Source of the DNA: an uncultured virus (IMG/VR IMGVR_UViG_3300049793_000365)
Lineage: Duplodnaviria; Heunggongvirae; Uroviricota; Caudoviricetes
Direction: 5' to 3' (one strand)
Length of the DNA stretch: 64,000 nt
Virus record (IMG/VR): IMGVR_UViG_3300049793_000365
Shown here in pieces: positions 8,311 to 63,893 of this stretch (position 1 is the stretch's first letter; the number at the start of each line of letters is the position of its first letter). The position numbers and the translations under genes are program-made. The notes beneath the pieces are model-generated. The model ran no database searches and was not told where the DNA came from. It was given only the letters and a program-made list of their open reading frames with translations.

Positions 8311-8650
8311 AAAAGTAGAGAATCTGTATTTTAGAGCTTTTAAAAAGGATCAAAAGTACTTTATAAAAGCCACTAAAGGCGTTCATCAATGGTTGGTTGA
8401 AATACTTCAAGAGAAGAAGTATAAGATGGACAGAATTAACTCAGTGTTGTATTACGCACAAGTATTAAACAGTCAACGACTGTCTTCTGAAAACTTCGAA
8501 GAAATTGACGAGGCTTTCGACCCAGAAATTCAAACAGCGGAAATATCTTCTCAGAAGGATCTTAAATATTTCATAGACATTGATAACAATGGTTTTGATG
8601 CTATGGCTGAATCATACTCAATTTTCAAAAATAACTATCGAGTTAATTAA
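8294..8650 (+). CDS. Hypothetical protein
   Basis: Overlapping operon-like ORF. Confidence 0.65.
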   Translation: MKKSVEKVENLYFRAFKKDQKYFIKATKGVHQWLVEILQEKKYKMDRINSVLYYAQVLNSQRLSSENFEEIDEAFDPEIQTAEISSQKDLKYFIDIDNNGFDAMAESYSIFKNNYRVN

Positions 8651-8994
8651 TGAGTAACAATTCTGATAGAATTAAGAAAGAGTTATCAGAAGAAGAGAAC
8701 GATTTCAAAGCGTTCGGATTACACTGTAAACTTATCAGAGAAGAACGTTCAGATAAATTTGAAGATAGTTACCTACCTAAGCTAAAAGATTCGTTTAAAG
8801 TAGCTTTTGATGCGAATATGGGTAAATACTCTATTAGTACCGATGATGGAATTGTAGACTTTTATCCAAAAGCAAATAAACTTCTCATACGCAAGAGCAA
8901 CAAGTGGGTTAAGCCTGGTCTTAAATGGTTGTTGACTAACTTGTTGACTAAATCTCAAGCAAGAGATACACAAATCAATAAAATTTTAGATTAA
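8650..8994 (+). CDS. Hypothetical protein with C-terminal RDxKI tag (RDTQINKILD)
   Basis: ORF; terminal motif. Confidence 0.7.
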   Translation: MSNNSDRIKKELSEEENDFKAFGLHCKLIREERSDKFEDSYLPKLKDSFKVAFDANMGKYSISTDDGIVDFYPKANKLLIRKSNKWVKPGLKWLLTNLLTKSQARDTQINKILD

Positions 8995-9429
8995 AGAGAA
9001 TACACGTTTAAGTGTATAATCACGATATTCACGTTTGGTTGATATCGGCTTTGAAAAGATGCTTGTAAGTCTTTTCTTTTCTATACTCGTTGAGAAGAAG
9101 GGGAAATTTATAACCTCTGAATCAAATATACCATTCTTAACTTTCTCAATAAGAGCATCTGGTACTTTATGTAGAACTTTTATATTTTTGACCTCAAGAC
9201 AATTAGTTCCGTCATGTATATTCATCATGTAGTCTAATTTTCGATACGACTCTTTTATCAACCCATGCTCCAAATCTTTAACACTCAATTCTAAAAGGTC
9301 ATCCAATATCACTGAGCTATAATAGTGTACCCAGTAAGAGTTATCCCATGTTGGTTTGGTATCAACGTATTTAATTCTGATAAATCCTTGTGATTGGTCT
9401 TGAAAGAAATATATTTCGTCTTTACGCAT
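8986..9429 (-). CDS. Hypothetical protein with C-terminal tag (RDYTLKRVF)
   Basis: ORF behind promoter 9465-9434. Confidence 0.65.
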   Translation of the reverse strand: MRKDEIYFFQDQSQGFIRIKYVDTKPTWDNSYWVHYYSSVILDDLLELSVKDLEHGLIKESYRKLDYMMNIHDGTNCLEVKNIKVLHKVPDALIEKVKNGIFDSEVINFPFFSTSIEKKRLTSIFSKPISTKREYRDYTLKRVFSLI

Positions 9430-9433
9430 AATA

Positions 9434-9465
9434 CAAATATAGTAAATTCCGGATGATAATGCAAA
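9434..9465 (-). promoter_or_regulatory. Bacteroidota sigma-type promoter
   Basis: TTTG-N20-TATATTTG on the minus strand. Confidence 0.75.
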
Positions 9466-9466
9466 T

Positions 9467-9937
9467 TTATGGAAGTAGATTAGTAATATCTTCTGCGCGA
9501 ACAGCTAATATATCAACCATGCAAAACTCATATCGGTTTATTGTTTCTACATAGAAGTTACTGAGCAGAGTAACTTGAAATCTATCGTATAACATTTTTA
9601 ACAACTCACTATTTCTTTGGTCAAGTGCTTCTGTTATAAGATGTTTATTGTTTGTGTCAAACTTGAATCTAATTCTATACCCACCGATAGTATCATCACC
9701 TTTTAAATACCAAGGTATAACTTTTAAAAATAATCTATATCGATGATTCTCAAATGTGAAGAATCTAACACCATATGTATTAGATGGAGTTGGACAACAA
9801 TGTATATTGCAATCCAACTCCATCATTGGGTTTTGATTATCAATCGCGTCACCTAAATATTTATAGATAATGAATTTTAAATCATCAAGTTCAAATGGGA
9901 ATCTTCTTTTAGCTAAATACATCACCTTTATTTCCAC
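9467..9937 (-). CDS. Hypothetical protein with tag variant (RAEDITNLL)
   Basis: ORF. Confidence 0.6.
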   Translation of the reverse strand: MEIKVMYLAKRRFPFELDDLKFIIYKYLGDAIDNQNPMMELDCNIHCCPTPSNTYGVRFFTFENHRYRLFLKVIPWYLKGDDTIGGYRIRFKFDTNNKHLITEALDQRNSELLKMLYDRFQVTLLSNFYVETINRYEFCMVDILAVRAEDITNLLP

Positions 9938-10226
9938 CTAAGATAAGCGATGGGTTTACACCTTCGTTTAAGTGAATCATAGCCTGAGACATGAAGCCTC
10001 TGATTTCGCGTGGTGGTAAATCCATTACGAAAGTAGTTGTCTTACCAAGTAATTCATCTGGTGTGAATAATTCAGCAATAGCAGATACAACAGTGCGTGT
10101 TGTTTCTTCACCTGCATCTATCGTTAGCTTGTATGCCTTAACTGGATTTTCTTCCGAGAATTCCTTTTTTGGATTTTTAAGAATTGGTTCTACTGCTGTA
10201 ATCTCAGCAAATTTTATTTCGTTCAT
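9909..10226 (-). CDS. Stand-alone tRNA-binding OB domain (Trbp111/CsaA/MetRS C-terminal type)
   Basis: YKLTIDAG...RTVVSAI....PDELLGK...DLPPREIRGFMSQAMI. Confidence 0.85.
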   Translation of the reverse strand: MNEIKFAEITAVEPILKNPKKEFSEENPVKAYKLTIDAGEETTRTVVSAIAELFTPDELLGKTTTFVMDLPPREIRGFMSQAMIHLNEGVNPSLILGGNKGDVFS

Positions 10227-10243: not shown

Positions 10244-10735
10244 TTATACTAAAATGTTTAATTTATAATCTCTGTAAATTTCTTTATCTTCTAACCATGA
10301 ATCAACCTTTCTAATTATTAACGCATGAAGATGATTATATGGTTCGTTGTTTATTAAGTTTGGATCACCAACATTATCTCTGAATGCTGATACTAACTCA
10401 GTGGGAGACCATCTTCTGTGATGTTCATCTTCCGGAAAAAACCTAGAGTTGACGAGTAGTATGAAATTGATAATTTCCTTCACATCGTCATATTCAGTTT
10501 TTCTATGCCACAACCCAATCCAAAGAGTTAATTCTTCATTATAAAAATGTTTGTTTTTATTGATAGCATTAACAGTAGGAAGCTTTATTTTCTTCGGCTT
10601 CACACCAATATACTTTTCCCATTTCTCTAATATGTAATCAGCACTGTGATTTCTCAAAGGGAGATTCATAGTGCGGTGAAAGTTAAAAGAAAACCTGATT
10701 AAATTATCCAGTTGTACTTTGGTCATTCTTATCAA
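10244..10735 (-). CDS. Hypothetical protein with C-terminal tag (RDYKLNILV)
   Basis: ORF. Confidence 0.7.
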   Translation of the reverse strand: MIRMTKVQLDNLIRFSFNFHRTMNLPLRNHSADYILEKWEKYIGVKPKKIKLPTVNAINKNKHFYNEELTLWIGLWHRKTEYDDVKEIINFILLVNSRFFPEDEHHRRWSPTELVSAFRDNVGDPNLINNEPYNHLHALIIRKVDSWLEDKEIYRDYKLNILV

Positions 10736-11084
10736 TTAATTTATTAATCTGTTCATCGCGTATCTCAGAGATTGGTTTCCCAAACATTAATTCGAATTCA
10801 TCTGGTGCGTGTTCTGGTGATTCAATTTTAACAAATCCCATACCACCAACAGCGTAGTAAACACCTTTATAATCAGAAGTTGGTGTTACTAATTCTATAA
10901 CATCACCAACTGATACTGACCTTACATTCTTTGGTTGAAAATCGTTTTGTCCATATCTAAAGATAGCTTCTAATACCGAATCGACATCTTTGTGTGCTAC
11001 TTCTTGTATCGGTACTTCAACTTCGCGTATATTGTTTATGCTCCCTTTTAGTGCTAACATAAAAACTTTGTATATCTTTTTCAT
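10704..11084 (-). CDS. YodL-like domain protein with C-terminal tag (RDEQINKLI)
   Basis: RSVSVGDVIEL...YYAV...GF; promoter TATATTTG 11110-11103. Confidence 0.6.
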   Translation of the reverse strand: MKKIYKVFMLALKGSINNIREVEVPIQEVAHKDVDSVLEAIFRYGQNDFQPKNVRSVSVGDVIELVTPTSDYKGVYYAVGGMGFVKIESPEHAPDEFELMFGKPISEIRDEQINKLIDKNDQSTTG

Positions 11085-11156
11085 AGTATGTCCGTTTTGT
11101 GACAAATATAAGGATAAAAAAGTACAAATCAAAATAGGGTAAATATTTACCTGAAA

Positions 11157-12014: not shown

Positions 12015-12096
12015 GCCCCGGTGGTGAAACTGGTAGACACGCAGGACTTAAAATCCTGTGGCTTTGGCTGTACGGGTTCGATTCCCGTCTGGGGTA
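12015..12096 (+). tRNA. trnL: tRNA-Leu (anticodon TAA); CCA not encoded
   Basis: Acceptor GCCCCGG/CTGGGGT, D-loop TGGTAGAC, anticodon arm CAGGA-CTTAAAA-TCCTG, long variable arm, GTTCGATTC T-loop. Confidence 0.95.
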
Positions 12097-12098
12097 CT

Positions 12099-13271: not shown

Positions 13272-14116
13272 AATTAAATGATTCTTTTTTAGGGGTTCTC
13301 TATGAGACTGACCCGAAGAAAACTCTTAAGGATTTTTTTATAAAATCACACCTTGATGAAGGTGTGAAGGAGAAAGTTATGAACGACCAGGCGACTGCTC
13401 TACTACTCGATCCTGTTGGCTTTCATAAGAGGCTTAAAATGCAGGGTACTGATTGGTGGGGTGAGCGATGTCGAATAGCAACATCACTTGTTGATAGACC
13501 TAAATCTCATAAAACATTCTACTTAACACCAAAGGTTCAAGAAGAAGCTGAATTAATTAAATTTGATAAAATAGATTTAAAGTGGTTCAACGATTTAACA
13601 TCAAAAGAGTGTACATACATCACTGGTAAAAATGAATTCTATCGATTCAACATCGAAGAAAAAAATAGAATCAATGTATTGAACTATCGCTTAGAAGATG
13701 GTCCTTTTGGTTTACAATATTGGTACGATTCCTATTCTATATTACTTGGTACTGGTGAGTTAGCAACACTACCAACACAGAAGCAAGACCACGCTATGCG
13801 CTTTGTTAAGTATTTACTATACGTAGAACTTGCTGATGTAGAAACAGTATTTGTAAAAGCCAGATTGGGTAAATTCAAATATGGTAAGAAAGGTGATGAT
13901 AAGATTAAAAACGAATCAGACATCGATGTAGTGCTTGTAAATTCTAACTGGAATAGAGCATTGGTTATGGTTGGTGAATCAACAACATCTGGTCATTTCA
14001 GAGTTCAGCCATATGGACCCAGAGAAAATCCTTATTATAGAATAAAGTGGATTTCTGAATATACTCGTGGTTCTTTTGTTAAGAAGCCTGGTAAAGAAGG
14101 ACACGAGGATTTATAG
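13268..14116 (+). CDS. Hypothetical phage protein
   Basis: C-terminal GHFRVQPYG...KWI..Y.RG motif. Confidence 0.7.
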   Translation: MKLNDSFLGVLYETDPKKTLKDFFIKSHLDEGVKEKVMNDQATALLLDPVGFHKRLKMQGTDWWGERCRIATSLVDRPKSHKTFYLTPKVQEEAELIKFDKIDLKWFNDLTSKECTYITGKNEFYRFNIEEKNRINVLNYRLEDGPFGLQYWYDSYSILLGTGELATLPTQKQDHAMRFVKYLLYVELADVETVFVKARLGKFKYGKKGDDKIKNESDIDVVLVNSNWNRALVMVGESTTSGHFRVQPYGPRENPYYRIKWISEYTRGSFVKKPGKEGHEDL

Positions 14117-14374
14117 AAGTATATCTAATCTCAATTCTCTTATATCTTCTTTACTCCAAAATCTTTTAAGAAAGATACTCATATCAGCCCAATACACATA
14201 AGTGATGTGTTTATACTTGAATGTTATTTCGTGTTCACTTATTTCAACTACTTTTATTGGACTGGTAATATCTAACATAAAGTGATATCCTAAATTTCCA
14301 AGTGCGGCACATTCAATAGAGAATGTGTCTTTTGGTTTAAGCTCGTCTGTGAAACTTGTGTAAAAATTTTCCAT
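14111..14374 (-). CDS. Hypothetical protein with C-terminal tag (RELRLDILL)
   Basis: ORF. Confidence 0.6.
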   Translation of the reverse strand: MENFYTSFTDELKPKDTFSIECAALGNLGYHFMLDITSPIKVVEISEHEITFKYKHITYVYWADMSIFLKRFWSKEDIRELRLDILL

Positions 14375-15673: not shown

Positions 15674-16393
15674 ATGCAAGTTAGATGTAAAAAAGGTACA
15701 AGAAAAATAGTAGCTGGTGTTGTTTACGAAGTAACTTCACTACACAATAGCTCTACTGATAGAAATAAAAAAATCTATATCAAAGGATTTAACTCTTCAT
15801 ATAGAGCTTGTAGTTTCACACAATTAGATGGATCTGATTTACCAACAATTAGTTGGAGTAGCAGAACTAATACAAATGTTTATGGTAAATTCGAAGCATC
15901 TGATATTAAAGTAGATGATATTTTGGTTTGTCAGTCAAACAATTATCAACACTTGATTGCTGGTGAGAAGTATAGAGTAGTTGAAACTAAAGTTAAGGAA
16001 CATAAATATACAAGCTCTGGTAACACCTATAAAAAATACTTAGTTAAGTTAGAGGGATATAACCGCTTTTTAGAAGTAAACAGTTGGCGTTTCAGATTAT
16101 TGGATAGGTCAGAGTCGAGAGAACTCAACTTAAATCATCTAATTAATGGTAGTAAAGGTACTACTGTTGTTGATACTTCCATACGAAAGTTAGATTTAGC
16201 AAACAGAAGAGAGTCTATCATTATATCTGCTTTGTGTAAAGCGGCCATAGATAAAAATCGACACGCGATGGATGTGGTTGATTGGTGTAGAAATCAAAGT
16301 AGTAGAGAACTTAGATTAGATAGAGACGATTTCTCAGAATTACTTAATCTTCCTTTGGGTGAGGTTCTTAAAAGATTAGAAGCCGCACAGTGA
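15674..16393 (+). CDS. Hypothetical protein with an internal RELNLNHLI motif
   Basis: ORF after promoter. Confidence 0.7.
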   Translation: MQVRCKKGTRKIVAGVVYEVTSLHNSSTDRNKKIYIKGFNSSYRACSFTQLDGSDLPTISWSSRTNTNVYGKFEASDIKVDDILVCQSNNYQHLIAGEKYRVVETKVKEHKYTSSGNTYKKYLVKLEGYNRFLEVNSWRFRLLDRSESRELNLNHLINGSKGTTVVDTSIRKLDLANRRESIIISALCKAAIDKNRHAMDVVDWCRNQSSRELRLDRDDFSELLNLPLGEVLKRLEAAQ

Positions 16394-16845
16394 AGATAAT
16401 ATTAGATATAGATGGTGTTTTGGTTACAACTCCAAGTTGGAAGAAAGCAGAGCTATTGGATGATGGGTTTCTTAAATTTGATAAAGAGGCTACTGATAAT
16501 TTAAATATCTTGTTGTTTGTAACAAATGCAACAATCGTATTAATATCAACTCACCGAATAAAATATAGCAATGATGAATTATCATTACTATTCAAGTCTC
16601 GTGGCATCAATGCTAATATAGAGAAGATAAACGATGTTGATGCTATACATCTAATAGATAAACCAAGCGAGATTATAAATTGGGTCAATACATCAAATAG
16701 TGAATACTTAATTATTGATGATGATTCATCGTTAGGTGTTCTTCCTAAAGACATTAAAATGCGTTGGATAAAACCAAGTCCTCTTATTGGATTCAGTGAA
16801 GATTATCTATGTAGCGCATTGAGCATTTTCAATAAACAAATTTGA
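16390..16845 (+). CDS. HAD-superfamily phosphatase (RNA-repair-associated HAD_SAK type)
   Basis: ILDIDGVL, IVLISTHR, YLIIDD. Confidence 0.8.
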   Translation: MKIILDIDGVLVTTPSWKKAELLDDGFLKFDKEATDNLNILLFVTNATIVLISTHRIKYSNDELSLLFKSRGINANIEKINDVDAIHLIDKPSEIINWVNTSNSEYLIIDDDSSLGVLPKDIKMRWIKPSPLIGFSEDYLCSALSIFNKQI

Positions 16846-17845: not shown

Positions 17846-18199
17846 ATGAAGCATCTTAAAACATTTGAAAGTCATTCTAAAGTAATTGGATATCACATCA
17901 CATTTAAACATCTGATTGATGTTATAAAGGAAGAAGGTCTTAAGCCACAAGTTCCATCTGATATGGAAGACATAGAAGCAGTTTATCTATTTAAAACAAT
18001 AGATGATGCTAAGAACGCATTGATGAATTGGCTTGGTGAGAGGATTGAGGAAATGGAAGAAGAGCAAGATATGACATTTGAAGAATTGTGCCTTGAGATT
18101 GACTTAACCGGGTTGGAAATAGTAGACACGGTTGAGTATGAATGGGCTTGTTTAGATTTAATTACACCTGATAGAATACTATCAATATTTGAGATATAA
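17846..18199 (+). CDS. Leader-bearing protein (MKHLKTFES) with an ART-like H-type fold signature
   Basis: GYHIT...IKEEGLKP...AVYL...EYEW...ITPDRI; AATATATA 17834-17841. Confidence 0.55.
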   Translation: MKHLKTFESHSKVIGYHITFKHLIDVIKEEGLKPQVPSDMEDIEAVYLFKTIDDAKNALMNWLGERIEEMEEEQDMTFEELCLEIDLTGLEIVDTVEYEWACLDLITPDRILSIFEI

Positions 18200-18513
18200 T
18201 GAGAGAAAATGATTTAGAATTTTTCAAGTCAATAGGCGTTACGCTGTATAATACAGATGGTAAGTATGACAGATACTCTGGATTCTGTTGTGAGGAAGCA
18301 ATTATGATAGCTATGATACTTGAAACAGAAGAGAAAATTATTGAATTCTCAAAGGCTGATAACGCAAGACAGAAGGAAATGGTTAGTTGTATAAGCGAAG
18401 AACATAGTGGTCACACATTTAATATGGCTTGTAAATTAGCAGTCGCATATTTACCTATGCTCAAAGTTAATATGAGGGATAATAAGATTAACGATATTGT
18501 AAAGCCTGATTAA
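18199..18513 (+). CDS. Hypothetical protein with C-terminal tag (RDNKINDIV)
   Basis: ORF. Confidence 0.7.
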   Translation: MRENDLEFFKSIGVTLYNTDGKYDRYSGFCCEEAIMIAMILETEEKIIEFSKADNARQKEMVSCISEEHSGHTFNMACKLAVAYLPMLKVNMRDNKINDIVKPD

Positions 18514-20077: not shown

Positions 20078-23000
20078 ATGTCTAAAGCATATAGTAATCT
20101 TTATATAATCGGCTCTGCCACTGGCTCAGCATTAACAGTACAAAATAATACTGGTGTTATATTAAATATTACCAGTTCTGGTTATGTTGGTATAGGAACT
20201 GCATCACCTTCTACAACTTTAGATGTTAATGGTATTTCCACGTTTAGAGGTGCGATAAAAAACTCAGCGGGTACCACTATTATCGATATTAATAGTGGAT
20301 ATACCATCAATGATAATGCTGGAAATCCTGTTATATATTTTGCTTCTAAAGCATTATATACTTCTGGTGGTTCTCCTGCTTTGAGTTGGTCAAATAGGCA
20401 ACTTATTAATTCATCATCTCAGATAACGGTAGGGTGGGAATCTTGTGTTATGAATGATGCCGCTGGAAACACGGCTGTAGAATGGTCAACTAGGAAATTA
20501 TATGCTAGTGATGGTACTACAAGAGTAGCTAATTGGCTTAATGGTAATTTAGCAGTTGGTTTAGATACTGGTACATCTAAACTTCATGTTGTTGCACCAA
20601 GTGGCACACCATTTATAGCAGAATCTACTATAGATGGTACTGGTGTGATTGCTAAATTCGTAAATAATGACGGTGGCTTCGATGCTAATCAGGAAATACA
20701 AATTGATATGAGTCAAGGAGCATCTACTGTTGGTAGAATGTCTTCATATTTCAGCGGTGGTCAAGCATGGGGATTCAAGTGGTATGGTCTTGATAATAGT
20801 GGGTTCTTCAATAGTGTTCCAATGTTGACATTAAGAGGTGATAAAATGAGTGGTGTTAATATAGCATCACCAAGTGCATCTTGGCACGTTAATAGTACGA
20901 GTGGTACTGCCTTTAGAGTTGATGTTTCTGGTTTAGGTAATGCGTTAAACGTAGACAGTACTGGTAATGTTGGTATAGGAACTGTACCAAGTTCATCATT
21001 CCCATTAGATGTTAGGTCAACTGGTGGTAGTCTTTATGCTAACTTTGATTTCACTGGTGTTGATAACGGTATTTTAATAAACGCTACTAGTAATACAACT
21101 CTTGCGATGAGAGAGGCTGGGGTTAATGAATATGTTGTTAAAATATCATCAGGATCAACATATATTGACACAAAGGGTGATTATTTATTGAGGTCAGTTA
21201 CGGCAAATCCATTACACGCGATTCAAAATGTAAATTCAATACCAACACACATATTATATGGCGATGTTTACTTTCAATACAATGCTGTTAATCACGGTAT
21301 CTTTACTGATACTGGTGAATTTGGTATTGGTACAATTAGTCCATCGGATTCTTTAACAATTAAAGCTACATCGAGTAAAGGTATCTCGATGTTCAATAAC
21401 TCAAATAATAGAACAGCGAGATTATTTACATATGATTCATTGGGTGGTAATCTATATTTAAATTCTGATGCAGGTGATGACTTAAAGATTGCTTTAGGTG
21501 CTGCTAATCCAAGTTGGGTTAATAATGGTCAGTTTTTCGGATTTCAAACAGCTACGCCAACTGATATAGTTGAAATTAATTCAGCTTTAGATTCAAAAGG
21601 TCTTTCTCTTACTAGGTCTGGGTCTAATAGAGGTAGATTATTTGCTTTTGATGGGTTTGGTGGTGTGTTTTATTTATATGATGACTCAGGAACAACACAG
21701 GTATCTCTTAGTGGTACGGGTAGTCAGTGTTTTATCGCTAATCAGAATTTCTCAATTGGTACTCAATCAGGAACAGCAAGATTACATATAGTTGGTGGTG
21801 GGACTTCATCTGGTCATGTATTTAAAGCAGAAAGCTTATCAGGTACTCCTATTTTATATGCTAAGAATGATGGTGGTATAACTATTAATTCAGCAACACT
21901 AAGTCAAGCTAATTTATTAAACATATTAGCTAAAGATGCTTTTAACGCCTCAGTTGTATTGAGAGATAGTACTGATTCATATAATATAATGGAATTAAAG
22001 GGTGATGGTTATTCTGTATTTAGAGCAATAACTATTAACGCACCATTATATCCTTCTCTAAATTTAACGAATGGTACAAATACACACACAATTCAGAATT
22101 CTGGTGGTGATTTATACGTAAGTGCGGGTGGTAGTGATAACTTAATATTGTATTCAACTGGCTCAGCACTATTAAAAGGTAATTTATTTGTTGGTAACTC
22201 AGTTGTTTCTGATAGTAGATTATACGTAAAAGGTGTTGATTCAACGTCAGCTAACTATGCTTTAAAAGTAGATAGTTCAACTGTTAATATACTATCAATT
22301 AGTAATAATGGGTTTAGTGGATTTGGTACAGCTAGTCCGGCAGCTCAAGTACATATTGAGAGACCAAATGATGGACAATATTTACTAAAAGTGACAAGTG
22401 ATGGAAACACTACATTGTCATCAAGATTAGCTTCCTTCGATACTACTGCCTTATCTCACACATTTGATGGAATTGGTGGTGGTAGTTATACATTCATTGC
22501 TGATGCCAATCCAACACTTATTTGGAATACAAGAGCCCTTGGTGAAACATTGACAATCGGTGGTTCGATACCAACATTGTCAACAACAAGACCAACATTA
22601 GTTATAGATGCACCGTTGGTTGGTGTTGGAATTTCATATCCAGCTACTACTGCTAAATTACACGTAAAAGCAAACGATTCTCTTGATTCTAGTTATGCTT
22701 TAAAAATAGATAATACAACTTCTAATATATTAACTGTTAGAAATGATGGTGTTTCCTACGTTAAACCAGTATCAGCATCGAGTAGCGTTTCATTGGGTGG
22801 TACGTTCTATGATTTTACAACTGGTGTATCAACTGCTACCTCAAGTGAGTCTACATTATATACAACGAGTGGTGTAGCACCTACATCTTATATGTTAGCA
22901 AGAGTTGGTGATAAGTTTAAGGGTAGATATAGTGGGTACTTTACAGGAGCAACAACATCTACTAAGACTATTAAATTTAAGTTCGGTGGTAATATTGAAT

Positions 23001-50924: not shown

Positions 50925-51349
50925 AATTCTATATTTATGTTCTGAAATTCATTTAAAACAGGGGTAGCTTCTTCGAGAGTAACCCATTTAAAGTCATCCA
51001 TTTCGTGAAATACTGCTTTACCATCGCGATATACCCAAGAGTGACACTTGAGTTCATGTTTGTCAAAAGAATCGTTTACCTTAACTAAAAATCCCTTTAG
51101 ATACTTATTAGTATTTCTATATCTGACATAATCAAATGGGACTACCGTTTCAATTTTAGAACTGAAGTCTTTTAAATCAACGTTTGTCTCTTCCCATAAT
51201 TCTCTCACTGCTACTTCATACTCAGAAGTTTCACCATCATCAATTCTACCTTTTGGTATTGACCAAACATTTGGACCATGATTCGTAGGATGAGCAATAA
51301 GTAGCTTATTCTCATTATTGAACAAATATATACCGCAACTAATCTTCAT
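50897..51349 (-). CDS. Nudix hydrolase
   Basis: WSIPKG.IDDGE....VAVRELWEET. Confidence 0.9.
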   Translation of the reverse strand: MKISCGIYLFNNENKLLIAHPTNHGPNVWSIPKGRIDDGETSEYEVAVRELWEETNVDLKDFSSKIETVVPFDYVRYRNTNKYLKGFLVKVNDSFDKHELKCHSWVYRDGKAVFHEMDDFKWVTLEEATPVLNEFQNINIELCKKLITKR

Positions 51350-51878
51350 CTATTATACTGTTTACTTTTAATTCTCTTAACAATGCTTCAAGGTTGACTT
51401 TATATGAGTCAACTGGTATGTCATTTCTGTACATATATATCGTTAATAGCTTATCGTCACTATATGTACTTACAACATTTATATCCTTCTCAAATGGTGG
51501 ATAGTGCCAATTGAATGTATAGTCAAATTTTTCATCAAGTTTTTTAACTACATATTTAAATACAGACCTCAGACCACCAAATGCTAAATCATTATCTACA
51601 AGTGTTATAAACCCACCAACGGTTTCGTCTATATAATCTGTTATTTGTAATTCTCTCATTATTTTTGAATTATGTTTCTTTACCCATCCCAACGTTTCGA
51701 ATTTACTATTGAGCAACATATCCAAACTATATTTATATGGCGTTGCCATTTGAGTATCTTTGAAAGAATACGTTTCATCCGGATTCATAAATAATATAGA
51801 GCCATCAGATATCCTTCGTATCTGTGCCGCTACATATCCGAATTTCTCGGCTTCTTCTTTAGATTTAAACCCACTCAT
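51339..51878 (-). CDS. Hypothetical protein with C-terminal tag (RELKVNSII)
   Basis: ORF; start probably MSGFKS. Confidence 0.6.
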   Translation of the reverse strand: MSGFKSKEEAEKFGYVAAQIRRISDGSILFMNPDETYSFKDTQMATPYKYSLDMLLNSKFETLGWVKKHNSKIMRELQITDYIDETVGGFITLVDNDLAFGGLRSVFKYVVKKLDEKFDYTFNWHYPPFEKDINVVSTYSDDKLLTIYMYRNDIPVDSYKVNLEALLRELKVNSIIDED

Positions 51879-52035
51879 TCTTGTGTTTTGGTTTACGTGT
51901 ATATGTTTTGGCACTTTTGTGTACGCGATTCATATTACAACGTGTACCTTCTTCTATTTCAATGTTTCGCCTAACAGTACGCTCTATATTGAGAATTTGG
52001 TCTTTTGTTATTTTTATATTTTTGAGCTTTTTCAT
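51865..52035 (-). CDS. Small basic protein (56 aa) ending RVHKSAKTYTRKPKHK
   Basis: Manual translation; CCGTATATTTACG promoter variant upstream. Confidence 0.6.
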   Translation of the reverse strand: MKKLKNIKITKDQILNIERTVRRNIEIEEGTRCNMNRVHKSAKTYTRKPKHKNEWV

Positions 52036-52145: not shown

Positions 52146-52547
52146 ATGATTAAGGTAAAGAATTCACAATTAGACAGCGAAACATTAGACGTAATCAATA
52201 AAATTATTGACCAGAAAATAAAAGCCTCTGCTGCTTTCAAGTTAGCTCGAATAGTTAAAGATTTGTCTTCTATTGTTGAAGAGAAGATGAAGCAAGAAAA
52301 GCGCATTCTTGAGAAATGGGCAGAAAAAGATGCTGATGGTACAATTTTATCGCCACAAGATGCTGATGGTAAGGTAATCCCTAACTCAGTTAAGATTATG
52401 GATATGAACGCATTCAACCAGGATATGATTGATTTGATGGAAGTTGAAAATGAACTTACTCACACATTATTAAAATTTGATGAGCTTGGTTTAGAAACAG
52501 ATATCACAACAAAAGAATTACTTAAAATTGACTTTTTATTTGAATAA
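52146..52547 (+). CDS. Hypothetical phage protein
   Basis: ORF; AATATATA 52116-52123. Confidence 0.7.
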   Translation: MIKVKNSQLDSETLDVINKIIDQKIKASAAFKLARIVKDLSSIVEEKMKQEKRILEKWAEKDADGTILSPQDADGKVIPNSVKIMDMNAFNQDMIDLMEVENELTHTLLKFDELGLETDITTKELLKIDFLFE

Positions 52548-53011
52548 TGAATCAAATATTATCTACTTATGAGAAGCATAGGGATGATGTCTACAAAGCA
52601 ATGAATAAGAATCCAGATGCCGTCTATTATTTTAAAGACGGCATTCTTTTTTTGATACTTCATTCTGAACACTCATCTAATCGAAAATATGGTTTTACAA
52701 AGGTTCCATTGTCGGAGTATTTCGATGATTGGTACAATACCGTTAATGGTATGATTGATTATATATGTACATCAAGTGTTGTTTCGCAATTCGGTGGTGT
52801 TCATAAATACACTACCTACGATTTTGACTCACTTGTTGAACTTGAATCATTTCTTAAAGAGAAATATATGACACATAATATAACCATATCATATTTTGAC
52901 TGTCTAAAACACAATGATGTACAAGATATTATACAATATCGAATAGTAGCAAATCTATTTGAGACCAAACAGAAAACCAGAAAGGTTAAACTGGAAGACT
53001 TATTGAGTTGA
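52547..53011 (+). CDS. Hypothetical protein with tag variant (RKVKLEDLL)
   Basis: ORF. Confidence 0.65.
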   Translation: MNQILSTYEKHRDDVYKAMNKNPDAVYYFKDGILFLILHSEHSSNRKYGFTKVPLSEYFDDWYNTVNGMIDYICTSSVVSQFGGVHKYTTYDFDSLVELESFLKEKYMTHNITISYFDCLKHNDVQDIIQYRIVANLFETKQKTRKVKLEDLLS

Positions 53012-59114: not shown

Positions 59115-61043
59115 ATGAGTCTACTAGAAAAAATTAAGAAAAACTGGTCTGAAGGTCACAAAGATATGACTATTCAGGAGTACCTTGAGCTTTGTAAAAA
59201 AGATAAGGATATATATGCTTCTCCCGCAGAGAGAATGTTACGTACAATTGGGGAACCAGAACTAATTGATACCAAAAGTGATCCAAGACTGAGCCGAATT
59301 TTCTCAAATAAGCTCATTAAACGCTACCCAGCATTTGCTGAATTTTATGGAATGGAAGATACAATCGAACAAATCGTATCTTTCTTCAAACACGCATCAC
59401 AGGGCTTAGAAGAAAAGAAACAAATTCTTTATTTACTAGGACCAGTAGGTGGTGGTAAGTCATCATTAGCTGAGAAGTTGAAACAGTTAATGGCTGATTC
59501 ACATTTATACGCACTTGTAGGTGAAGATGGTGAAGTTTCTCCAATTTGGGAATCACCGCTTGGTCTATTTTCAGATTATAGAGAATTATTATTAGAAGAA
59601 TACGGAATCGAAAAACGTTATATCCCATCTTGTCCATCTCCTTGGGCGGTTAAAAGATTAAAAGAATATAATGGCGACCTTACTAAGTTCAAAGTTAGAA
59701 AACTTAAATCTTCAATCCAAGAACAAATTGGTATTGCTAAGACAGAACCAGGTGATGATAACAATCAGGATATATCAGCATTAGTTGGTAAGATTGATGT
59801 TAGAAAACTTGGTCAGTTTGCTCAGAACGACCCGGATGCTTATAACTTCTCTGGTGCTTTATGTAAAGCAAACCAAGGTGTTATGGAATTCGTAGAGATG
59901 TTCAAGGCACCTATAAAAATGTTACACCCGTTGTTAACAGCAACACAAGAAGGTAACTATAATGGTACAGAAGCATTATCAGCTATTCCATTTCAAGGAA
60001 TTATCTTAGCTCACTCAAATGAATCAGAGTGGGAATCATTTTCAAATGATAAAAAGAACGAAGCCTTTTTAGACAGGGTTTACATCGTTCGCGTTCCATA
60101 TTGCTTACGCTTAACAGAAGAGGTAGAAATTTACAAAAAGTTATTACGTAGTTCTTCATTAGGCAACGCGGCTTGCGCTCCACAGACACTTGATTTGTTG
60201 GCACAGTTCACAGTAATGACTCGTTTAAAAAGACCGGAGAACTCATTATTATCATCTAAGATGAGAGTTTACAATGGTGAGTCATTAAAAGAAACGGATC
60301 CTCAAGCTAAATCATTACAAGAATATCGTGATGATGGTGGTATCACTGAGGGTATGAATGGTATTTCTACACGTTTTGCTTTCAAAGTATTATCTAAAGT
60401 TTTCAACTACGATAATGAAGAGATAGCAGCTAATCCAATACATTTAATGTATGTACTTGAACAAGAAATTATCAAGTTACAATTAAATAAGGATCTTGAA
60501 GATTACTACATCGCAATTCTTAAAGATAACATCAAGACAAAATATGCTGAGTTCATCGGTGAAGAAATTCAAAAAGCATACGTTGATTCATACCAAGAGT
60601 ATGGTCAGAATATGTTCGAGAAATACTTCTTATACGCTGACCACTGGTGTCGTGACGAAGATTACCGCGATGGTAATACAGGTGAAACATTTGACCGTCA
60701 GGTTTTAAATGCTGAACTTGAAAAGGTTGAAAAGTCTGCTGGTATTTCTAATCCTAAGGATTTCAGAAATGATATCACTCAGTTTGTTTGGAGAACAAAA
60801 GCTTCTAACAATGGTAAAATGCCACGTTGGGATGCTTATGAGAAAATTAGAAATGTAATTGAGAAAAGATTATTTTCTAAAACAGAAGATATTATTCCTG
60901 TTATCTCTTTCGCTACAAAATCTTCTAAGGATGAAGAAAAGAAACACGCTGATTTCATAAATCGCATGGAAGAAAGAGGATATACTCGTAAACAAATTCA
61001 ACTTGTTGTTGAGTGGTATTTAAGAGTTAGAAAAAATTCATAA
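59115..61043 (+). CDS. prkA: PrkA/YeaG-family AAA+ serine kinase-like protein
   Basis: LEEKKQILYLLGPVGGGKSS, KTEPGDDNNQDIS, EFVEMFKAPIK.LHPLLTATQEG, AHSNESEW. Confidence 0.95.
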   Translation: MSLLEKIKKNWSEGHKDMTIQEYLELCKKDKDIYASPAERMLRTIGEPELIDTKSDPRLSRIFSNKLIKRYPAFAEFYGMEDTIEQIVSFFKHASQGLEEKKQILYLLGPVGGGKSSLAEKLKQLMADSHLYALVGEDGEVSPIWESPLGLFSDYRELLLEEYGIEKRYIPSCPSPWAVKRLKEYNGDLTKFKVRKLKSSIQEQIGIAKTEPGDDNNQDISALVGKIDVRKLGQFAQNDPDAYNFSGALCKANQGVMEFVEMFKAPIKMLHPLLTATQEGNYNGTEALSAIPFQGIILAHSNESEWESFSNDKKNEAFLDRVYIVRVPYCLRLTEEVEIYKKLLRSSSLGNAACAPQTLDLLAQFTVMTRLKRPENSLLSSKMRVYNGESLKETDPQAKSLQEYRDDGGITEGMNGISTRFAFKVLSKVFNYDNEEIAANPIHLMYVLEQEIIKLQLNKDLEDYYIAILKDNIKTKYAEFIGEEIQKAYVDSYQEYGQNMFEKYFLYADHWCRDEDYRDGNTGETFDRQVLNAELEKVEKSAGISNPKDFRNDITQFVWRTKASNNGKMPRWDAYEKIRNVIEKRLFSKTEDIIPVISFATKSSKDEEKKHADFINRMEERGYTRKQIQLVVEWYLRVRKNS

Positions 61044-61050: not shown

Positions 61051-61440
61051 ATGGGTGAGATTCGTAAATCAGATATTGTAAATGGTGATGTAGCTAAGTA
61101 TGCTGATTACATAACCGATGCCGCTAATAACGCTCTTCAATATTGTGACTATTTGGTACATATTAATTTAAGTGTTAAGGACTTTATCGTAAAATATCAC
61201 GATAAGGCAATGAGTGAGACTATAAGAACGATGTCACCAACTGAACTCGAAGAATATGCCGCTTTATTAAATGATATGATAACATTTCAAGAGATTACTG
61301 CCGGTAAGTTGGATAAACTTATCGGTACTCTTGATAAAGATTTATATAATGATTTTAGAGAAGCATATATGGATGAACAATCAGCTCTTAAGAAATACAA
61401 AAGAGATGTTAAAATTAACAAACTAACGGATGGCGACTAA
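61051..61440 (+). CDS. Hypothetical protein with C-terminal tag (RDVKINKL), between prkA and yeaH
   Basis: ORF. Confidence 0.65.
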   Translation: MGEIRKSDIVNGDVAKYADYITDAANNALQYCDYLVHINLSVKDFIVKYHDKAMSETIRTMSPTELEEYAALLNDMITFQEITAGKLDKLIGTLDKDLYNDFREAYMDEQSALKKYKRDVKINKLTDGD

Positions 61441-62698
61441 TATAGTAGATAGAAGAAAAAATCCATCGGGTAAATCGGTTCCTAATCGTCAAAAATTCTT
61501 GAAAAGAATTGAAGACCAAATAAAGAAAGCTATACCAAATATTGTTGATTCAAATTCAATAGATGAGATAACTAAGGGTAAGGGTAGCATTAAAATTCCA
61601 GTTAAGGGTATCTCTGAGCCGGAATTTGGCTATGACCATTCAAGTGGTGATAAGAAATATGTACATCCCGGTAATAAGAAATATAGTGAAGGAGATAAGA
61701 TAAAGAAACCACAAGGTGGTCAAGGTAAGGGTGGTCGTCAAGGCTCACGCGATGCTGGTGCGACAGAAGATGAGTTTACGGTATCTATATCACGAGATGA
61801 GTTTCTTGATTTCTTTTTTAAAGATTTAGAATTACCAGATATGGTAAGAAAGCAGTTGACTAAAGTAGTTGATTGGAAACAAAAGAGAGCAGGGTACACC
61901 ACTGTTGGTAATCCGTCTCGATTGAATATTGTTAAATCCTATACCAAGTCATTGACGAGGCGCATAGCTATGTGTTCTTATTATGACTCTGAAATTAAAA
62001 GAATAGAAGATAAATTAAAAACAAAAGGTTTATCAAGCGATGAGATATTAAAGTTAGAACAACAGTTAGAAGACTTTAAAAGATTGAAGTTGGCTATTCC
62101 ATTTATGGATGACATTGACTTACGTTACAATAACTTTGATAAATTTCCTGTTCCAAGTACACAAGCAGTAATGTTTTGTATAATGGATGTATCTGGTTCA
62201 ATGGGTCAAAACGAAAAGGATATAGCTAAAAGATTTTTCTTATTGTTGTATATGTTCTTGATGAAAGAATATGAAAAGATAGAGATAGTTTATATTAGAC
62301 ATCACACAGAAGCAAAGGAAGTATCTGAACAAGAATTCTTTGATTCGAGAGAGTCGGGTGGTACCGAAGTATTACCAGCCTTAGAAATGATGAATAATAT
62401 TATCAACGAAAGATATAGTGGTGGTTGGAATATTTACGCATCTCAAATTTCTGATGGTGATGTATGGGGTAGACAAGATGCTGATGATTGTGCTAAATTC
62501 CTTAATTCGGAAGTACTTAAGAAAGTACAGTACATGATTTATGTAGAAGTTTGTAGAGAGAGTATGGGAGATTTATGGATGACATACTCCGATGTTAAGG
62601 GTAAAAATTCAAACTTTGAAATGGGTAAAATTAATAAGGTTAATGAAATATGGCAAGTCTTCCAAGACTTCTTTAGAAAAAAAGTAACTACCAAGTGA
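61430..62698 (+). CDS. yeaH: YeaH/YhbH (DUF444) family protein
   Basis: IVDRR.N..GKS..NRQKF, VHPGN, AVMFCIMDVSGSM, IRHHT, ESGGT, SDGD. Confidence 0.93.
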   Translation: MATNIVDRRKNPSGKSVPNRQKFLKRIEDQIKKAIPNIVDSNSIDEITKGKGSIKIPVKGISEPEFGYDHSSGDKKYVHPGNKKYSEGDKIKKPQGGQGKGGRQGSRDAGATEDEFTVSISRDEFLDFFFKDLELPDMVRKQLTKVVDWKQKRAGYTTVGNPSRLNIVKSYTKSLTRRIAMCSYYDSEIKRIEDKLKTKGLSSDEILKLEQQLEDFKRLKLAIPFMDDIDLRYNNFDKFPVPSTQAVMFCIMDVSGSMGQNEKDIAKRFFLLLYMFLMKEYEKIEIVYIRHHTEAKEVSEQEFFDSRESGGTEVLPALEMMNNIINERYSGGWNIYASQISDGDVWGRQDADDCAKFLNSEVLKKVQYMIYVEVCRESMGDLWMTYSDVKGKNSNFEMGKINKVNEIWQVFQDFFRKKVTTK

Positions 62699-63018
62699 TG
62701 GCTATGACACCCTTTTATATAAGACCAAATCCTGGTTACAGTTATGATCCATGTGAATCAGATAGATATGAGTTCACTCAAGCTATTAAAAAACTTGGAT
62801 TTGAATTAACTAATCCGGAAGTGGATCTTATGAATTTTACATCAGAATGTACGGCGTTATATGTTACTGAGAATAACTTCGATGCTATATTGGTTGAGAA
62901 GAATAAGTACACTTATATAAATATAGGTAGTAAACGCATAGAGAGTGGTGAATTTAAAAATAGCAGAATATTTTTAAGAGATTTAAAGTTGAAGAAATTA
63001 ATAAATGAGCAAGCTTGA
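62695..63018 (+). CDS. Hypothetical protein with C-terminal tag (RDLKLKKLI)
   Basis: ORF. Confidence 0.65.
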   Translation: MMAMTPFYIRPNPGYSYDPCESDRYEFTQAIKKLGFELTNPEVDLMNFTSECTALYVTENNFDAILVEKNKYTYINIGSKRIESGEFKNSRIFLRDLKLKKLINEQA

Positions 63019-63208
63019 TTTACATGGGGTTAGACACATTGATGTGGATGAGTTGGTTGAAGATTTTATATTAACCAATGAATTACCACTCTATATCATA
63101 ACTGGTAACTCACACGTAATGAAAGATAAAGTTATACGCTTATTGGATAAACATAATTTTAAATATGTAATTCGAGCGCATAATTTAGGAGAAATAGTTG
63201 TATTATAA
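63005..63208 (+). CDS. Stand-alone Smr-like domain
   Basis: LDLHG, IITGNS, NLG. Confidence 0.7.
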   Translation: MSKLDLHGVRHIDVDELVEDFILTNELPLYIITGNSHVMKDKVIRLLDKHNFKYVIRAHNLGEIVVL

Positions 63209-63450
63209 TGGCAAATATACCAGGTAGTATTTTAGTAACAGGATTAGCAGCACCATCTGATAATATAATGATGTGTGACTCAACGGGTAATATATCTTGG
63301 GGTAGACCAAGTAATAACTTACTAATGCGTGATGAGATTACGGGTGAGATATATGAATTGATTGTAAGCAACGGTAAATTAGATATAAGAGCTACTTCTA
63401 AGCAAGGCATTAGACAACAAAAGATTGATAAAATAGTAGAAGATGAGTAA
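63208..63450 (+). CDS. Hypothetical protein with C-terminal tag (RQQKIDKIV)
   Basis: ORF. Confidence 0.6.
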   Translation: MANIPGSILVTGLAAPSDNIMMCDSTGNISWGRPSNNLLMRDEITGEIYELIVSNGKLDIRATSKQGIRQQKIDKIVEDE

Positions 63451-63694
63451 GAGTGGTTACCATTTAGCTAAAATTCAGAAAGGTAAATTGGGCGAAATCT
63501 CAAAGATACAAGAAGAATTAGATGAGCTTAAAGATGCTGAGTTACAGGAGTCAAAGGTAATGATTTCAGTAGAGTTATCTGATTTATATGGCGCACTAGA
63601 AGCTTACGCAATTAAACAAGGTTTAACAATGGATGATTTGAAAAAGTTTTCCATAATAACAAAAAGAGCATTCACAAATGGCAAAAGGAAATGA
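63443..63694 (+). CDS. MazG-like nucleotide pyrophosphatase fold protein
   Basis: KIQEELDEL.DA...ELSDLYGA. Confidence 0.6.
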   Translation: MSKSGYHLAKIQKGKLGEISKIQEELDELKDAELQESKVMISVELSDLYGALEAYAIKQGLTMDDLKKFSIITKRAFTNGKRK

Positions 63695-63893
63695 TGATAA
63701 GAGACAACGTGAGCTTGTAAATAAATTGATACAAGCGGCTAATCAGCTTAGTAAACAAAATGAGGGAAAGGCTGACCACGTTATTGTTTCTCCTGATTTA
63801 TATGAGAAGATAGAAGAAATGAAAGAGTATATTGAAATTCTTGAGCGAATGAAAAATCGTAATAAAGGAATTGATGATGTACTTAACGGTTAA
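63678..63893 (+). CDS. Hypothetical protein with C-terminal tag (RNKGIDDVL)
   Basis: ORF. Confidence 0.6.
   Translation: MAKGNDDKRQRELVNKLIQAANQLSKQNEGKADHVIVSPDLYEKIEEMKEYIEILERMKNRNKGIDDVLNG

Follow-up and report, generated by a model that had tools for sequence, protein, structure and literature searches.

A short C-terminal peptide tag shared by unrelated small proteins of huge phages

The stretch of DNA analyzed here, 64 kb of an uncultured tailed virus (IMG/VR record IMGVR_UViG_3300049793_000365) and referred to as the window, encodes many small proteins that end in a similar peptide of about nine residues, referred to as the tag. The window has a G+C content of 32% and is densely coding on both strands. 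Its gene set consists of 98 hand-curated open reading frames (ORFs). Pfam matches among their products include the large and small subunits of ribonucleotide reductase, methionyl-tRNA synthetase, a DnaB-type helicase, and Tpt1/KptA, together with a 2OG-Fe(II) oxygenase, glycosyl- and methyltransferases, PrkA (59115-61043), and DUF444/YeaH (61430-62698). This Pfam content is typical of a very large phage. By PrkA, the closest records in a phage collection were uncultured phages of 642,428, 634,780, and 636,363 bp, with identities of 77%, 75%, and 64%, respectively.

The tag exists, is anchored at the C-terminus, and occurs far above chance. A strict pattern, R[DE].[KQR][ILV][NDKEGS].[ILV][ILVF], run over all six frames of the window produced 18 matches. 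Sixteen of these were located 0 to 12 residues before a stop codon, one was internal (at 2229 in the ORF 2061-2774), and one contained a stop codon. Within the last 25 residues, the strict pattern was present in 14 of the 98 ORFs compared with 0.01 in shuffled sequences, and it was absent from the first 25 residues of all of them. A loose pattern, R...[ILV]..[ILV][ILVFTSE], matched at 30 of 1666 C-terminal start positions of the 98 ORFs versus 16 of 18082 internal ones (odds ratio 20.7, Fisher p = 1.2e-21). Expressed per protein, 30 of the 98 ORFs carried a loose match in the last 25 residues, whereas 1000 residue shuffles gave 1.53 +/- 1.18 (maximum 6); the first 25 residues gave two matches and reversed sequences also gave two. 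Further evidence comes from a profile that was trained on 90 instances from a related phage genome, LR756502.1, and on no sequence of the window, which avoids circularity. At a cut-off of 4 bits, this independent profile found 25 matches in the window, 23 within 11 residues of a C-terminus and two internal. A first-pass annotation of the window had proposed to test the last 25 residues for enrichment over shuffled and internal controls, and both the patterns and the profile built from LR756502.1 alone show such an enrichment. It had also claimed that enzymes and virion proteins lack the tag. Within the window this holds, as a generic form of the pattern matched none of the 32 ORFs of at least 200 amino acids (aa).

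The individual carriers proposed by the first-pass annotation fared unevenly. Of its 29 listed ORFs, 28 are in the curated set; among these, 22 scored at least 4 bits, three were weak (those at 52547, 63678, and 49924), and three were unsupported (those at 9467, 27956/28028, and 45501). One carrier absent from that list was found at 3230-3577 on the minus strand. Loose matches in 37004-37864 and 63005-63208 were left out of the motif alignment as chance. In the descriptions below, bit scores refer to the independent profile. The added carrier (3230-3577, minus strand, 115 aa) has a DUF7574 body according to Pfam (residues 6-74) and ends in REHKINLIVKQ, whose tag core REHKINLIV (3239-3265, 6.0 bits) lies 2 aa before the stop. 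Next come 8650-8994 (+, 114 aa) with RDTQINKIL at 8962-8988 (12.2 bits) and 8986-9429 (-, 147 aa) with RDYTLKRVF at 8998-9024 (6.0 bits). The ORF 9467-9937 (-, 156 aa) is a doubtful carrier because its RAEDITNLL (9473-9499) was matched by the loose pattern only and scored below 0 bits. The ORF 10244-10735 (-) probably starts at 10669 to give a protein of 141 aa; its RDYKLNILV (10247-10273, 11.9 bits) stands directly before the stop. In 10704-11132 (-, 142 aa), which also shows a weak YodL match (E 0.038), RDEQINKLI (10734-10760, 14.5 bits) stands 9 aa before the stop. Two further carriers are 14111-14374 (-, 87 aa), with RELRLDILL at 14114-14140 (4.2 bits), and 18199-18513 (+, 104 aa), whose RDNKINDIV at 18475-18501 scored 15.6 bits.

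Several carriers lie close together between 27108 and 30992. The ORF 27108-27638 (-, 176 aa) carries REFQINKII (27114-27140, 8.5 bits) and a weak internal copy (4.1 bits); the end of its body resembles, by eye, the C-terminal part of a RecA/DnaB-type ATPase, and it has a homologue in LR756502.1 (w366984, E 1e-9). It is followed by 27635-27982 (-, 115 aa; RDYKIGLIS, 27644-27670, 4.7 bits) and by the doubtful 27956-28297 (+, 113 aa), in which RWYGLNKLI (28259-28285) scored -2.7 bits. The Cys-rich 65-aa product of 28297-28494 (+) ends in RDIKIDNIL (28456-28482, 14.9 bits), that of 28484-28771 (+, 95 aa) in RNGRIDDIF (28730-28756, 5.1 bits), and that of 28774-29244 (+, 156 aa) in LDEKINSIL (29212-29238, 5.2 bits), where Leu replaces Arg. 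Both 30073-30648 (+, 191 aa; RDNKLNTLF, 30619-30645, 9.6 bits) and 30648-30992 (+, 114 aa; RSEKLKKLI, 30963-30989, 10.2 bits) encode an N-terminal membrane-like segment, which in the former covers residues 2-20 (score 2.17); the latter has a tagged orthologue, w135583. Farther along, 36712-37035 (+, 107 aa) bears RESKIENIL (36976-37002, 12.2 bits) 10 aa before the stop, 37864-38082 (+, 72 aa) bears RDKKINTIL (38020-38046, 13.2 bits), and 38051-38458 (+, 135 aa) bears RDMKLNSLE (38426-38452, 9.3 bits).

A double copy of the tag had been ascribed to a gene starting at 44804. Two tandem copies matching the strict pattern are indeed present, REDKINQLI at 44992-45018 and REDQINQLL at 45025-45051, but in a frame different from that of the ATG at 44804. 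They belong to a short frame at 44962-45057 (+), which is open from 44863 and has its first ATG at 44962. The ATG at 44804 opens a 28-codon frame that stops at 44888-44890, and the tandem copies sit in the -1 frame relative to it. The stretch 44804-45057 may represent a gene with a frameshift, an error in the sequence, or a case of programmed slippage. The stop is followed by an inverted repeat that is GC-rich and looks terminator-like by eye.

The remaining carriers lie in the right part of the window. The ORF 45501-45890 (-, 129 aa; RYNQLDNLL, 45519-45545) is doubtful at -1.1 bits, and its LR756502.1 homologue was not flagged as tagged. The ORF 49464-49808 (+, 114 aa) bears RNESIDRIT (49752-49778, 4.9 bits). 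A weak carrier, 49924-50478 (-, 184 aa; RDRAISALL, 49927-49953, 0.8 bits), has an orthologue, w381224, whose tag scores 10 bits. It is followed by 50475-50924 (-, 149 aa; RDIKLNEII, 50478-50504, 12.5 bits), by 51339-51914 (-, 191 aa; RELKVNSII, 51351-51377, 4.1 bits), and by the weak carrier 52547-53011 (+, 154 aa; RKVKLEDLL, 52979-53005, 3.2 bits). At the right end, the segment 59115-63893 consists of PrkA, a tagged gene of 129 aa, DUF444/YeaH, and then several small genes in a row, of which four are tagged, with a short Smr-like ORF. The tagged gene between PrkA and DUF444/YeaH is 61051-61440 (+; RDVKINKLT, 61402-61428, 9.2 bits). Farther right are 62695-63018 (+, 107 aa; RDLKLKKLI, 62977-63003, 9.1 bits), 63208-63450 (+, 80 aa; RQQKIDKIV, 63412-63438, 8.4 bits), and the weak carrier 63678-63893 (+, 71 aa; RNKGIDDVL, 63858-63884, 1.8 bits), whose orthologue w501868 has a tag of 7.2 bits. 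Internal copies had been reported for two ORFs. The one in 2061-2774 (+, 237 aa) stood up, as RDYKLDDIL, located 172 aa before the end, scored 12.2 bits and matched the strict pattern; the one in the ORF at 15674 did not (1.0 bit).

The full motif reads K-x-x-h-R-[DE]-x-[KQ]-[IL]-[ND]-x-[IL]-[LIV] and is located 0 to 12 residues before the stop. Counting from Arg as position 0, a Lys is found at -4 in 15 of 29 aligned instances and the residue at -1 is commonly hydrophobic. Among profile hits in LR756502.1, Arg is present in 123 of 123 and Asp, Asn, or Glu occupies +1 in 113 of 123. Position +8 in that genome is mostly Leu or Gly (L 76, G 37, I 13, and F 5; n = 141), and a sub-variant ends in L/I-G-I/L exactly at the C-terminus (18 of 123 profile hits and 37 of 141 pattern hits). 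Gln at +3 is a minor residue (7 of 141 in LR756502.1 and 4 of 22 in the window). A helical wheel suggests that the tag forms an amphipathic C-terminal helix that would display Arg0, Asp/Glu1, Lys3, Ile/Leu4, Asn/Asp5, Ile/Leu7, and Leu8 on one face and residues -5, -1, and +2 on the opposite face. Does such a helix simply bind membranes, as in MinD or FtsA? Its terminal position, its amphipathicity, and its basic residues are of that kind. However, a near-invariant Arg would sit in the middle of the hydrophobic face of the wheel, Asp and Asn are conserved, and the tag is also found on carriers that have their own membrane-like anchor. A membrane-binding helix is thus a very improbable account of the tag.

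The bodies to which the tag is attached are small and mostly unrelated. An all-versus-all BLASTP of the 98 ORFs found no pair among the 29 carriers at E <= 0.01, so that the earlier description of the carriers as unrelated holds at sequence level. When the tails were trimmed from tagged proteins of the window, LR756502.1, and a second related genome, LR756504.1, 66 of 268 bodies had any phmmer hit, and 41 had a tagged paralogue in the same genome. Most carrier bodies thus appear, by sequence comparison, to be orphans. Searches with Pfam (E <= 0.001) and PHROGs matched one of the 29 window carriers, the protein with the DUF7574 body, and left its tail uncovered; Pfam matched four of 99 LR756502.1 carriers, in each case in the body. 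In agreement with the first-pass annotation, which knew of no named family for the motif, no curated profile of Pfam or PHROGs covers it. An AlphaFold2 model of the carrier family of 10244 has a helical body with a predicted local distance difference test (pLDDT) score of 70-83 and tag residues below 50. A second tag-like protein was modelled with a beta-rich body and a low-confidence terminal helix (pLDDT <50). In these models, the two bodies have different predicted folds and the tail is a low-confidence appendage in both.

The size bias is strong. In LR756502.1, tagged ORFs made up 58 of 250 in the 50-100 aa class and 51 of 233 in the 100-150 aa class, hence 109 of 483 below 150 aa, versus 2 of 156 among ORFs of at least 300 aa. 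The lengths of all carriers range from 52 to 622 aa. A rare large carrier is a conserved acidic protein of 583-622 aa that ends in a canonical tag and looks coiled-coil-like by eye. It was found at 606188-608056 (-) in LR756502.1, and at 250-1998 and 274-2082 in two further loci (L303 and L304, respectively), and its sole Pfam match is a weak TacA1-like stretch.

How widely is the tag distributed? The generic pattern was counted in the last 24 residues of each ORF, and the expected number was derived from the internal match rate. ORFs of LR756502.1, LR756504.1, and a 155-kb IMG/VR fragment (G009) were greedy calls of at least 50 aa, and their totals are hence approximate. Tagged ORFs numbered 22 of 98 in the window (expected 0.1), 141 of 976 in LR756502.1 (6.6), 105 of 928 in LR756504.1 (4.3), 35 of 226 in G009 (1.5), and 4 of 119 in a 118-kb fragment with 49.5% G+C, G001 (0.8). 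Likewise, a profile trained on the window identified 99 ORFs at or above 6 bits in LR756502.1, 87 of them with the match at most 16 residues from the end. The first-pass annotation had called the tag phage-wide and suggested a scan of related jumbo phages; 11-15% of the ORFs of two complete relatives carry it. Other tag-bearing IMG/VR contigs include a 508-kb and a 476-kb one, both rated 97% complete by CheckV. Short tag-bearing contigs are rated 7-24% complete and are therefore taken as fragments of large genomes. The tag is a hallmark of huge phages. It is also maintained over evolutionary distance, as it was kept in nine of nine members of the 10244 family at 38-69% identity and in five of seven homologue pairs between the window and LR756502.1.

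A scan with an exact degenerate DNA pattern, covering the RDxKINKI[LF] form only, was used for IMG/VR and for cellular genomes. In IMG/VR, this pattern gave 37 Arg-type matches, of which 23 lay at most 16 aa from a stop; in 19 of these, the frame was open for 50 aa or more before the match. Among the 120 matches listed for cellular genomes, 4 lay at most 16 aa from the end of an open frame 50 aa or longer, and most lay in very short open frames. Host mimicry was considered and set aside, since for this form the cellular matches listed rarely sit at ORF ends. In 12 stretches of Bacteroidota metagenome-assembled genomes, mostly of Chitinophagaceae and Saprospiraceae, the pattern always read T-R-D-[QR]-K-I-N-K-I-F within a very short frame. 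These recurrences look like a conserved non-coding element or repeat and not a protein tag.

Is the tag then a protein signal at all? It could in principle be a nucleotide element placed at gene ends, or simply the end of one diverged paralogue family. The A/T-rich coding sequence, the 41 proteins with a tagged paralogue in the same genome, and the tight arrays of carriers (the upstream gap is at most 10 nt for 70% of tagged LR756502.1 genes) are compatible with this. The codons, however, are not. The Arg of the tag is encoded by AGA (15), AGG (5), CGT (3), CGC (3), and CGA (2), close to the background of 62/9/12/8/9%, and the Ile, Leu, or Val residues at positions 4 and 7 are each specified by 8-9 different codons. 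Pairwise identity between instances is 0.74 at codon position 2 and 0.38 at codon position 3, where composition predicts 0.31. Because both Arg codon families are used at background rates and third positions are near composition, selection must act on the peptide, just as had been proposed from the varied codons. Moreover, 7 of 29 carriers end at convergent gene junctions, and the tag is therefore not a coupling or promoter signal for a downstream gene. The only strict match in non-coding frames was the one that contained a stop, the DNA pattern rarely falls at ORF ends among the cellular matches listed, and the bodies differ in sequence, in length, and in the two predicted folds. A nucleotide element or paralogue family is hence already contradicted by the codon and junction data and can hardly be credited. 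Extensions that follow internal copies (52-55 aa in four ORFs) are mutually unlike.

LR756504.1 (636 kb, 26% G+C) was nearly tag-free when searched with the first profile. De novo enrichment of C-terminal patterns in this genome led to a different form, R-K-x-[KR]-I-x-x-L-L, which is most often located exactly at the C-terminus. In other words, the two genomes use different dialects of the tag. At position +1, acidic or amide residues outnumber basic ones by 121 to 3 in LR756502.1, whereas the ratio is 8 to 61 in LR756504.1 (p = 2.4e-37). Of the tagged proteins of the window and LR756502.1, a single one has a homologue in LR756504.1, which implies that the tag as a class predates the proteins that carry it today. 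The +1 residue has changed in concert from Asp to Lys over about 100 unrelated LR756504.1 proteins, as would be predicted for a single co-evolving reader, and this argues for one. The charge reversal also bears on the idea that the tails pair with each other as a short coiled coil to form homo- or hetero-oligomers that do not need a separate hub. The i, i+3, i+4 spacing of hydrophobic residues in the amphipathic helix and the tandem copies in one ORF are in line with such pairing. However, 9-13 residues are short for a stable coiled coil, and a lineage-wide reversal of charge is easier with a complementary reader, although this last argument is weak because a self-pairing helix could drift likewise. 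Self-association is considered quite unlikely.

The reading that best fits these findings, judged slightly better than even, is that the tag is a short linear C-terminal peptide on small huge-phage proteins that is read by one common partner. We infer the binding to a partner, the singleness of the reader, and its identity. Its carriers would form a large set, with fast turnover of its members, of small proteins located in the cytoplasm or anchored in the membrane. Each would owe its particular target or activity to its variable body, and the tail common to all would connect it to a shared hub. What might the hub be? The first-pass annotation had viewed the motif as an address label and offered several readers for it. 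Its description of the label stands, as the tag is conserved at the protein level, C-terminal, carried by unrelated small bodies, phage-wide, without a named family, and, in addition, divided into dialects at +1. Two of its proposals did not fare well. PrkA (with YeaH) is disfavored because the PrkA gene is absent from the two tag-rich contigs of 476 and 508 kb rated 97% complete by CheckV, and import into a compartment is weakened for the reason given below.

The leading candidate, although on its own judged less likely than not, is the phages' own Clp machine, which would comprise ClpP and a ClpC-like unfoldase devoid of the N-terminal adaptor-binding domain. The tail would then act as a degron or as a tether of the kind found at the end of Clp adaptors. 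Each of the four long genomes searched (LR756502.1, LR756504.1, and the two contigs rated 97% complete by CheckV) encodes a ClpC-like ATPase. This protein is ~710 aa long, matches the Pfam domains AAA, AAA_lid_9, UVR, AAA_2, and ClpB_D2-small, and has an acidic low-complexity N-terminus; Clp_N was not among its Pfam hits. It also contains a G-V-G-F loop of the kind that docks ClpC on ClpP. ClpP (PF00574, E 1e-55 to 1e-78) was found in five of five tag-bearing records and the ClpC-like AAA_2 protein in four of five. The record that does not have the latter, G009, is a fragment with synteny to 87-160 kb of LR756502.1, and its missing gene was therefore dropped as an argument against Clp. Immediately upstream of their ClpC-like gene, two phages have a gene for a beta-rich protein of 115-129 aa that ends in a conserved, tag-like helix, R-E-E-I-I-D-E-V-L (upstream and ClpC-like genes at 1129-1476 and 1495-3627 of L253, and both within 440128-442667 of LR756502.1). 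The most conserved part of this upstream protein is its C-terminal helix, S-E-R-R-E-E-I-I-D-E-V-L-N-N.

Some tagged mini-proteins copy pieces of larger phage proteins. The product of 49464-49808 in the window (residues 9-61) matches residues 277-333 of the ClpC-like protein of contig G008 in its UVR/middle domain (BLASTP E 9e-6), and a tagged 71-aa protein of LR756502.1 also matches the UVR/middle-domain stretch of the phage ClpC-like ATPase. Other copies concern the capsid. Tagged proteins of 61 and 261 aa in LR756502.1 match residues 513-546 and 343-506, respectively, of the Gp23-family capsid protein (571 aa) of the same phage. In LR756504.1, a tagged 178-aa protein matches residues 124-284 of that phage's own capsid protein (E 3e-15) and a tagged 65-aa protein matches it weakly. 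In the window, residues 6-30 of the protein encoded by 37864-38082 match residues 344-368 of the LR756502.1 capsid protein (BLASTP E 2e-5; Pfam Gp23 E 0.01).

The capsid copies raise the alternative that the tag is a capsid-loading signal. In this model, the tail would dock small proteins on the scaffold or the inside of a T4-type capsid for packaging and injection together with the DNA, as a C-terminal analogue of the T4 capsid-targeting sequence or of the cargo-loading peptides of encapsulins. The relatives encode a Gp23-family capsid protein (Pfam 3.7e-28), tagged mini-proteins copy its pieces in LR756502.1 (two), LR756504.1 (two), and the window (one), and the carriers are small. However, membrane-like N-terminal segments were present in 11 of 123 tagged small ORFs and in 2 of the 29 window carriers, and anchored proteins are unlikely capsid cargo. 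Because such segments are as common on carriers as on untagged small ORFs (66 of 660), the import or capsid-loading reading is weakened and a cytoplasmic reader is favored. More than 100 cargo species per genome would also be without precedent. Finally, the signal used by T4 is N-terminal, and the present motif occurs N-terminally in 0-2 of the 98 ORFs. Capsid loading is thus regarded as an unlikely explanation.

A different alternative retains the protease but not the adaptor. The tag would serve purely as a degron, by which a protease of the host or the phage destroys a class of (early) proteins at a set time. Its C-terminal site, mostly 0-3 residues from the end, is suited to this role, the phages encode ClpP and ClpC-like genes, and carriers are clustered in small-gene arrays near both ends of the LR756502.1 record. 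On the other hand, up to 12 residues, and in a few cases at least 50, follow the tag, and the conserved Arg, Asp, Lys, and Asn on one predicted face suggest specific docking over a greasy tail. Promoter motifs also fail to separate tagged from untagged operons. Upstream of LR756502.1 genes, the T4-late TATAAATA box was found for 0 of 22 tagged-first versus 24 of 257 untagged-first genes and a Bacteroidota -7 box for 6 of 22 versus 43 of 257, and no 7-mer discriminated the two. A degron and nothing more is judged improbable, to about the same degree as capsid loading.

Several observations weigh against a common reader, and against Clp in particular. The dialect switch is seen in one lineage only and is thus inseparable from phylogeny or from a change of host, and the reader could just as well be a host protein. 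The case for Clp comprises gene presence, two mimic mini-proteins, and one neighboring gene, and tagged neighbors are not rare where 12-15% of genes are tagged. Clp genes occur in many huge phages, and the genomes compared here are all tag-bearing. The protein encoded upstream of the ClpC-like gene has no Lys at +3 and scores only 5 bits; a fold search with it gave weak tail-tube or Hcp-like matches (template-modelling score 0.4-0.5) and no SspB-, MecA-, or ClpS-like adaptor fold. The known degrons of ClpX and ClpA occupy the extreme C-terminal end of a protein, whereas the tag is trailed by 0-12 residues and is internal in a few of its strong copies. Fragment-copy mini-proteins are more often copies of the capsid protein than of ClpC, which points towards the head and not the protease.

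The idea of a Clp hub can be extended to programmable targeting. More than 100 small, fast-replaced receptors or baits would plug via their tails into an N-domain-less ClpC-ClpP, the tag would replace the adaptor-binding domain, and tag and reader would be a co-evolving pair. This extension is a speculative one and probably incorrect as a whole. It is equally speculative that some of the baits would be copies of interface pieces of the capsid protein, the Clp ATPase, and a RecA/DnaB-like ATPase, the whole being a phage counterpart of the F-box and SOCS-box families. If it were true, possible uses would be the removal of host defense sensors of those phage proteins or the timing of assembly.

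Other features of the window and its relatives were noted. The ORFs 20078-23278 and 23332-26622 encode adjacent proteins of ~1,070-1,100 aa with PHROGs tail-fibre and tail-needle matches. Their first 52 residues are common (46% identity), as is a later stretch of ~240 residues, and megablast of 20078-26622 against the phage collection found no match. The ORFs 3-1079 (-) and 6310-7689 (+) are paralogues (42% identity over 295 residues), and the C-terminal end of the latter's product is Cys-rich and B-box-like. A set of genes for RNA and tRNA upkeep lies at 1120-2011, 4290-4817, 9909-10226, 16390-16845, and 45887-47386, with a tRNA at 12015-12097; its members are a 2OG-Fe(II) oxygenase, DUF4326, a Tpt1/KptA 2'-phosphotransferase, a tRNA-binding domain protein, HAD_SAK_2, methionyl-tRNA synthetase, and tRNA-Leu(TAA). 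A phage tmRNA with a motif-like tag peptide was also considered and rejected: in an ARAGORN search, LR756502.1 contained 46 tRNA genes but no tmRNA, and the window contained a single tRNA-Leu. Four clusters within ~50 kb (373-423 kb) of LR756502.1 hold 44 of the 46 tRNA genes, many of which are same-anticodon duplicates.

No description of the tag was found in the literature searched, including the main text of PMC7162821. The present analysis adds cellular-genome controls, the size bias, the Lys dialect, the evidence against PrkA as the reader, and the distribution of Clp genes. Shared terminal address peptides have so far been seen in a few small sets, such as T4 internal proteins, encapsulin cargo, Clp adaptors, and clamp partners. 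In the present case, a single peptide is found on roughly a quarter of the genes in a 64-kb stretch and on 11-15% of the ORFs of the largest known phages, and for nearly all of its carriers, which are orphans, no function is predicted. If there is one reader, hundreds of "hypothetical" proteins would share a common pathway, which could partly explain the size of these genomes. The Asp and Lys dialects provide a ready-made charge-swap test of specificity. That some carriers copy fragments of the capsid protein and of ClpC suggests a logic of mimicry or bait that has not been seen described for phages. The tag could also be used as a sequence marker of this phage group and as a pull-down handle.

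How does the tag compare with known terminal peptides? Clamp-binding tails (the PIP box, the beta-clamp motif, and the C-termini that bind T4 gp45) are likewise short linear C-terminal motifs with a similar hydrophobic spacing, carried by the many partners of one hub ring. However, the tag has neither the first-position Gln nor the aromatic pair of clamp-binding motifs (QL[SD]LF), and its carriers are orphan mini-proteins, far more numerous than clamp partners, and not replication or repair enzymes. The cargo-loading peptides of encapsulins and the encapsulation peptides of microcompartments are short terminal peptides or amphipathic helices on unrelated proteins. They bind the inside of a protein shell, which in encapsulins has the phage-capsid fold. 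Encapsulin cargo genes lie beside the shell gene, and their peptides follow a Gly/Ser-Leu-type consensus. The consensus of the tag is a different one, and the membrane-anchored carriers argue against loading into a closed shell. The ORF 63678-63893 showed a Linocin_M18 match below the cut-off (E 0.008), and no search was aimed at encapsulin genes. The T4 head protease removes the capsid-targeting signal of T4. The tag resembles that signal in that diverse small proteins of a T4-type lineage share only a short terminal address peptide. The T4 capsid-targeting sequence is an N-terminal address peptide (PMC3012670). The tag, by contrast, is C-terminal, is found on 11-15% of all ORFs, and is also present on membrane-anchored proteins.

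F-box and SOCS-box proteins and poxviral ankyrin proteins with PRANC or F-box-like ends also combine many variable target-binding bodies with one constant C-terminal module. Such modules recruit a common degradation machine, and poxviruses have expanded a family of this kind. Those modules are eukaryotic folded domains of 40-50 residues, whereas the tag would be a phage helix of 9-13 residues. The likeness to the ClpX-binding tail (XB) of the SspB-type Clp adaptor and to ssrA-type degrons is that of a variable, substrate-binding body with a short C-terminal peptide for plugging into one AAA+ protease, and the phages concerned encode ClpP and a ClpC-like protein. By eye, however, the tag consensus R-[DNE]-x-K-[IL]-[NDK]-x-[IL]-[LG] is dissimilar from XB, from ssrA LAA-type ends, and from MuA-type basic ends. 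Clp adaptors are a handful compared with more than 100 carriers per genome, and the phage ClpC-like protein has no N-domain, which usually receives adaptors. Thus, the tag would work like known terminal address peptides and yet is a member of none of these classes, from which it differs in position, consensus, and scale.

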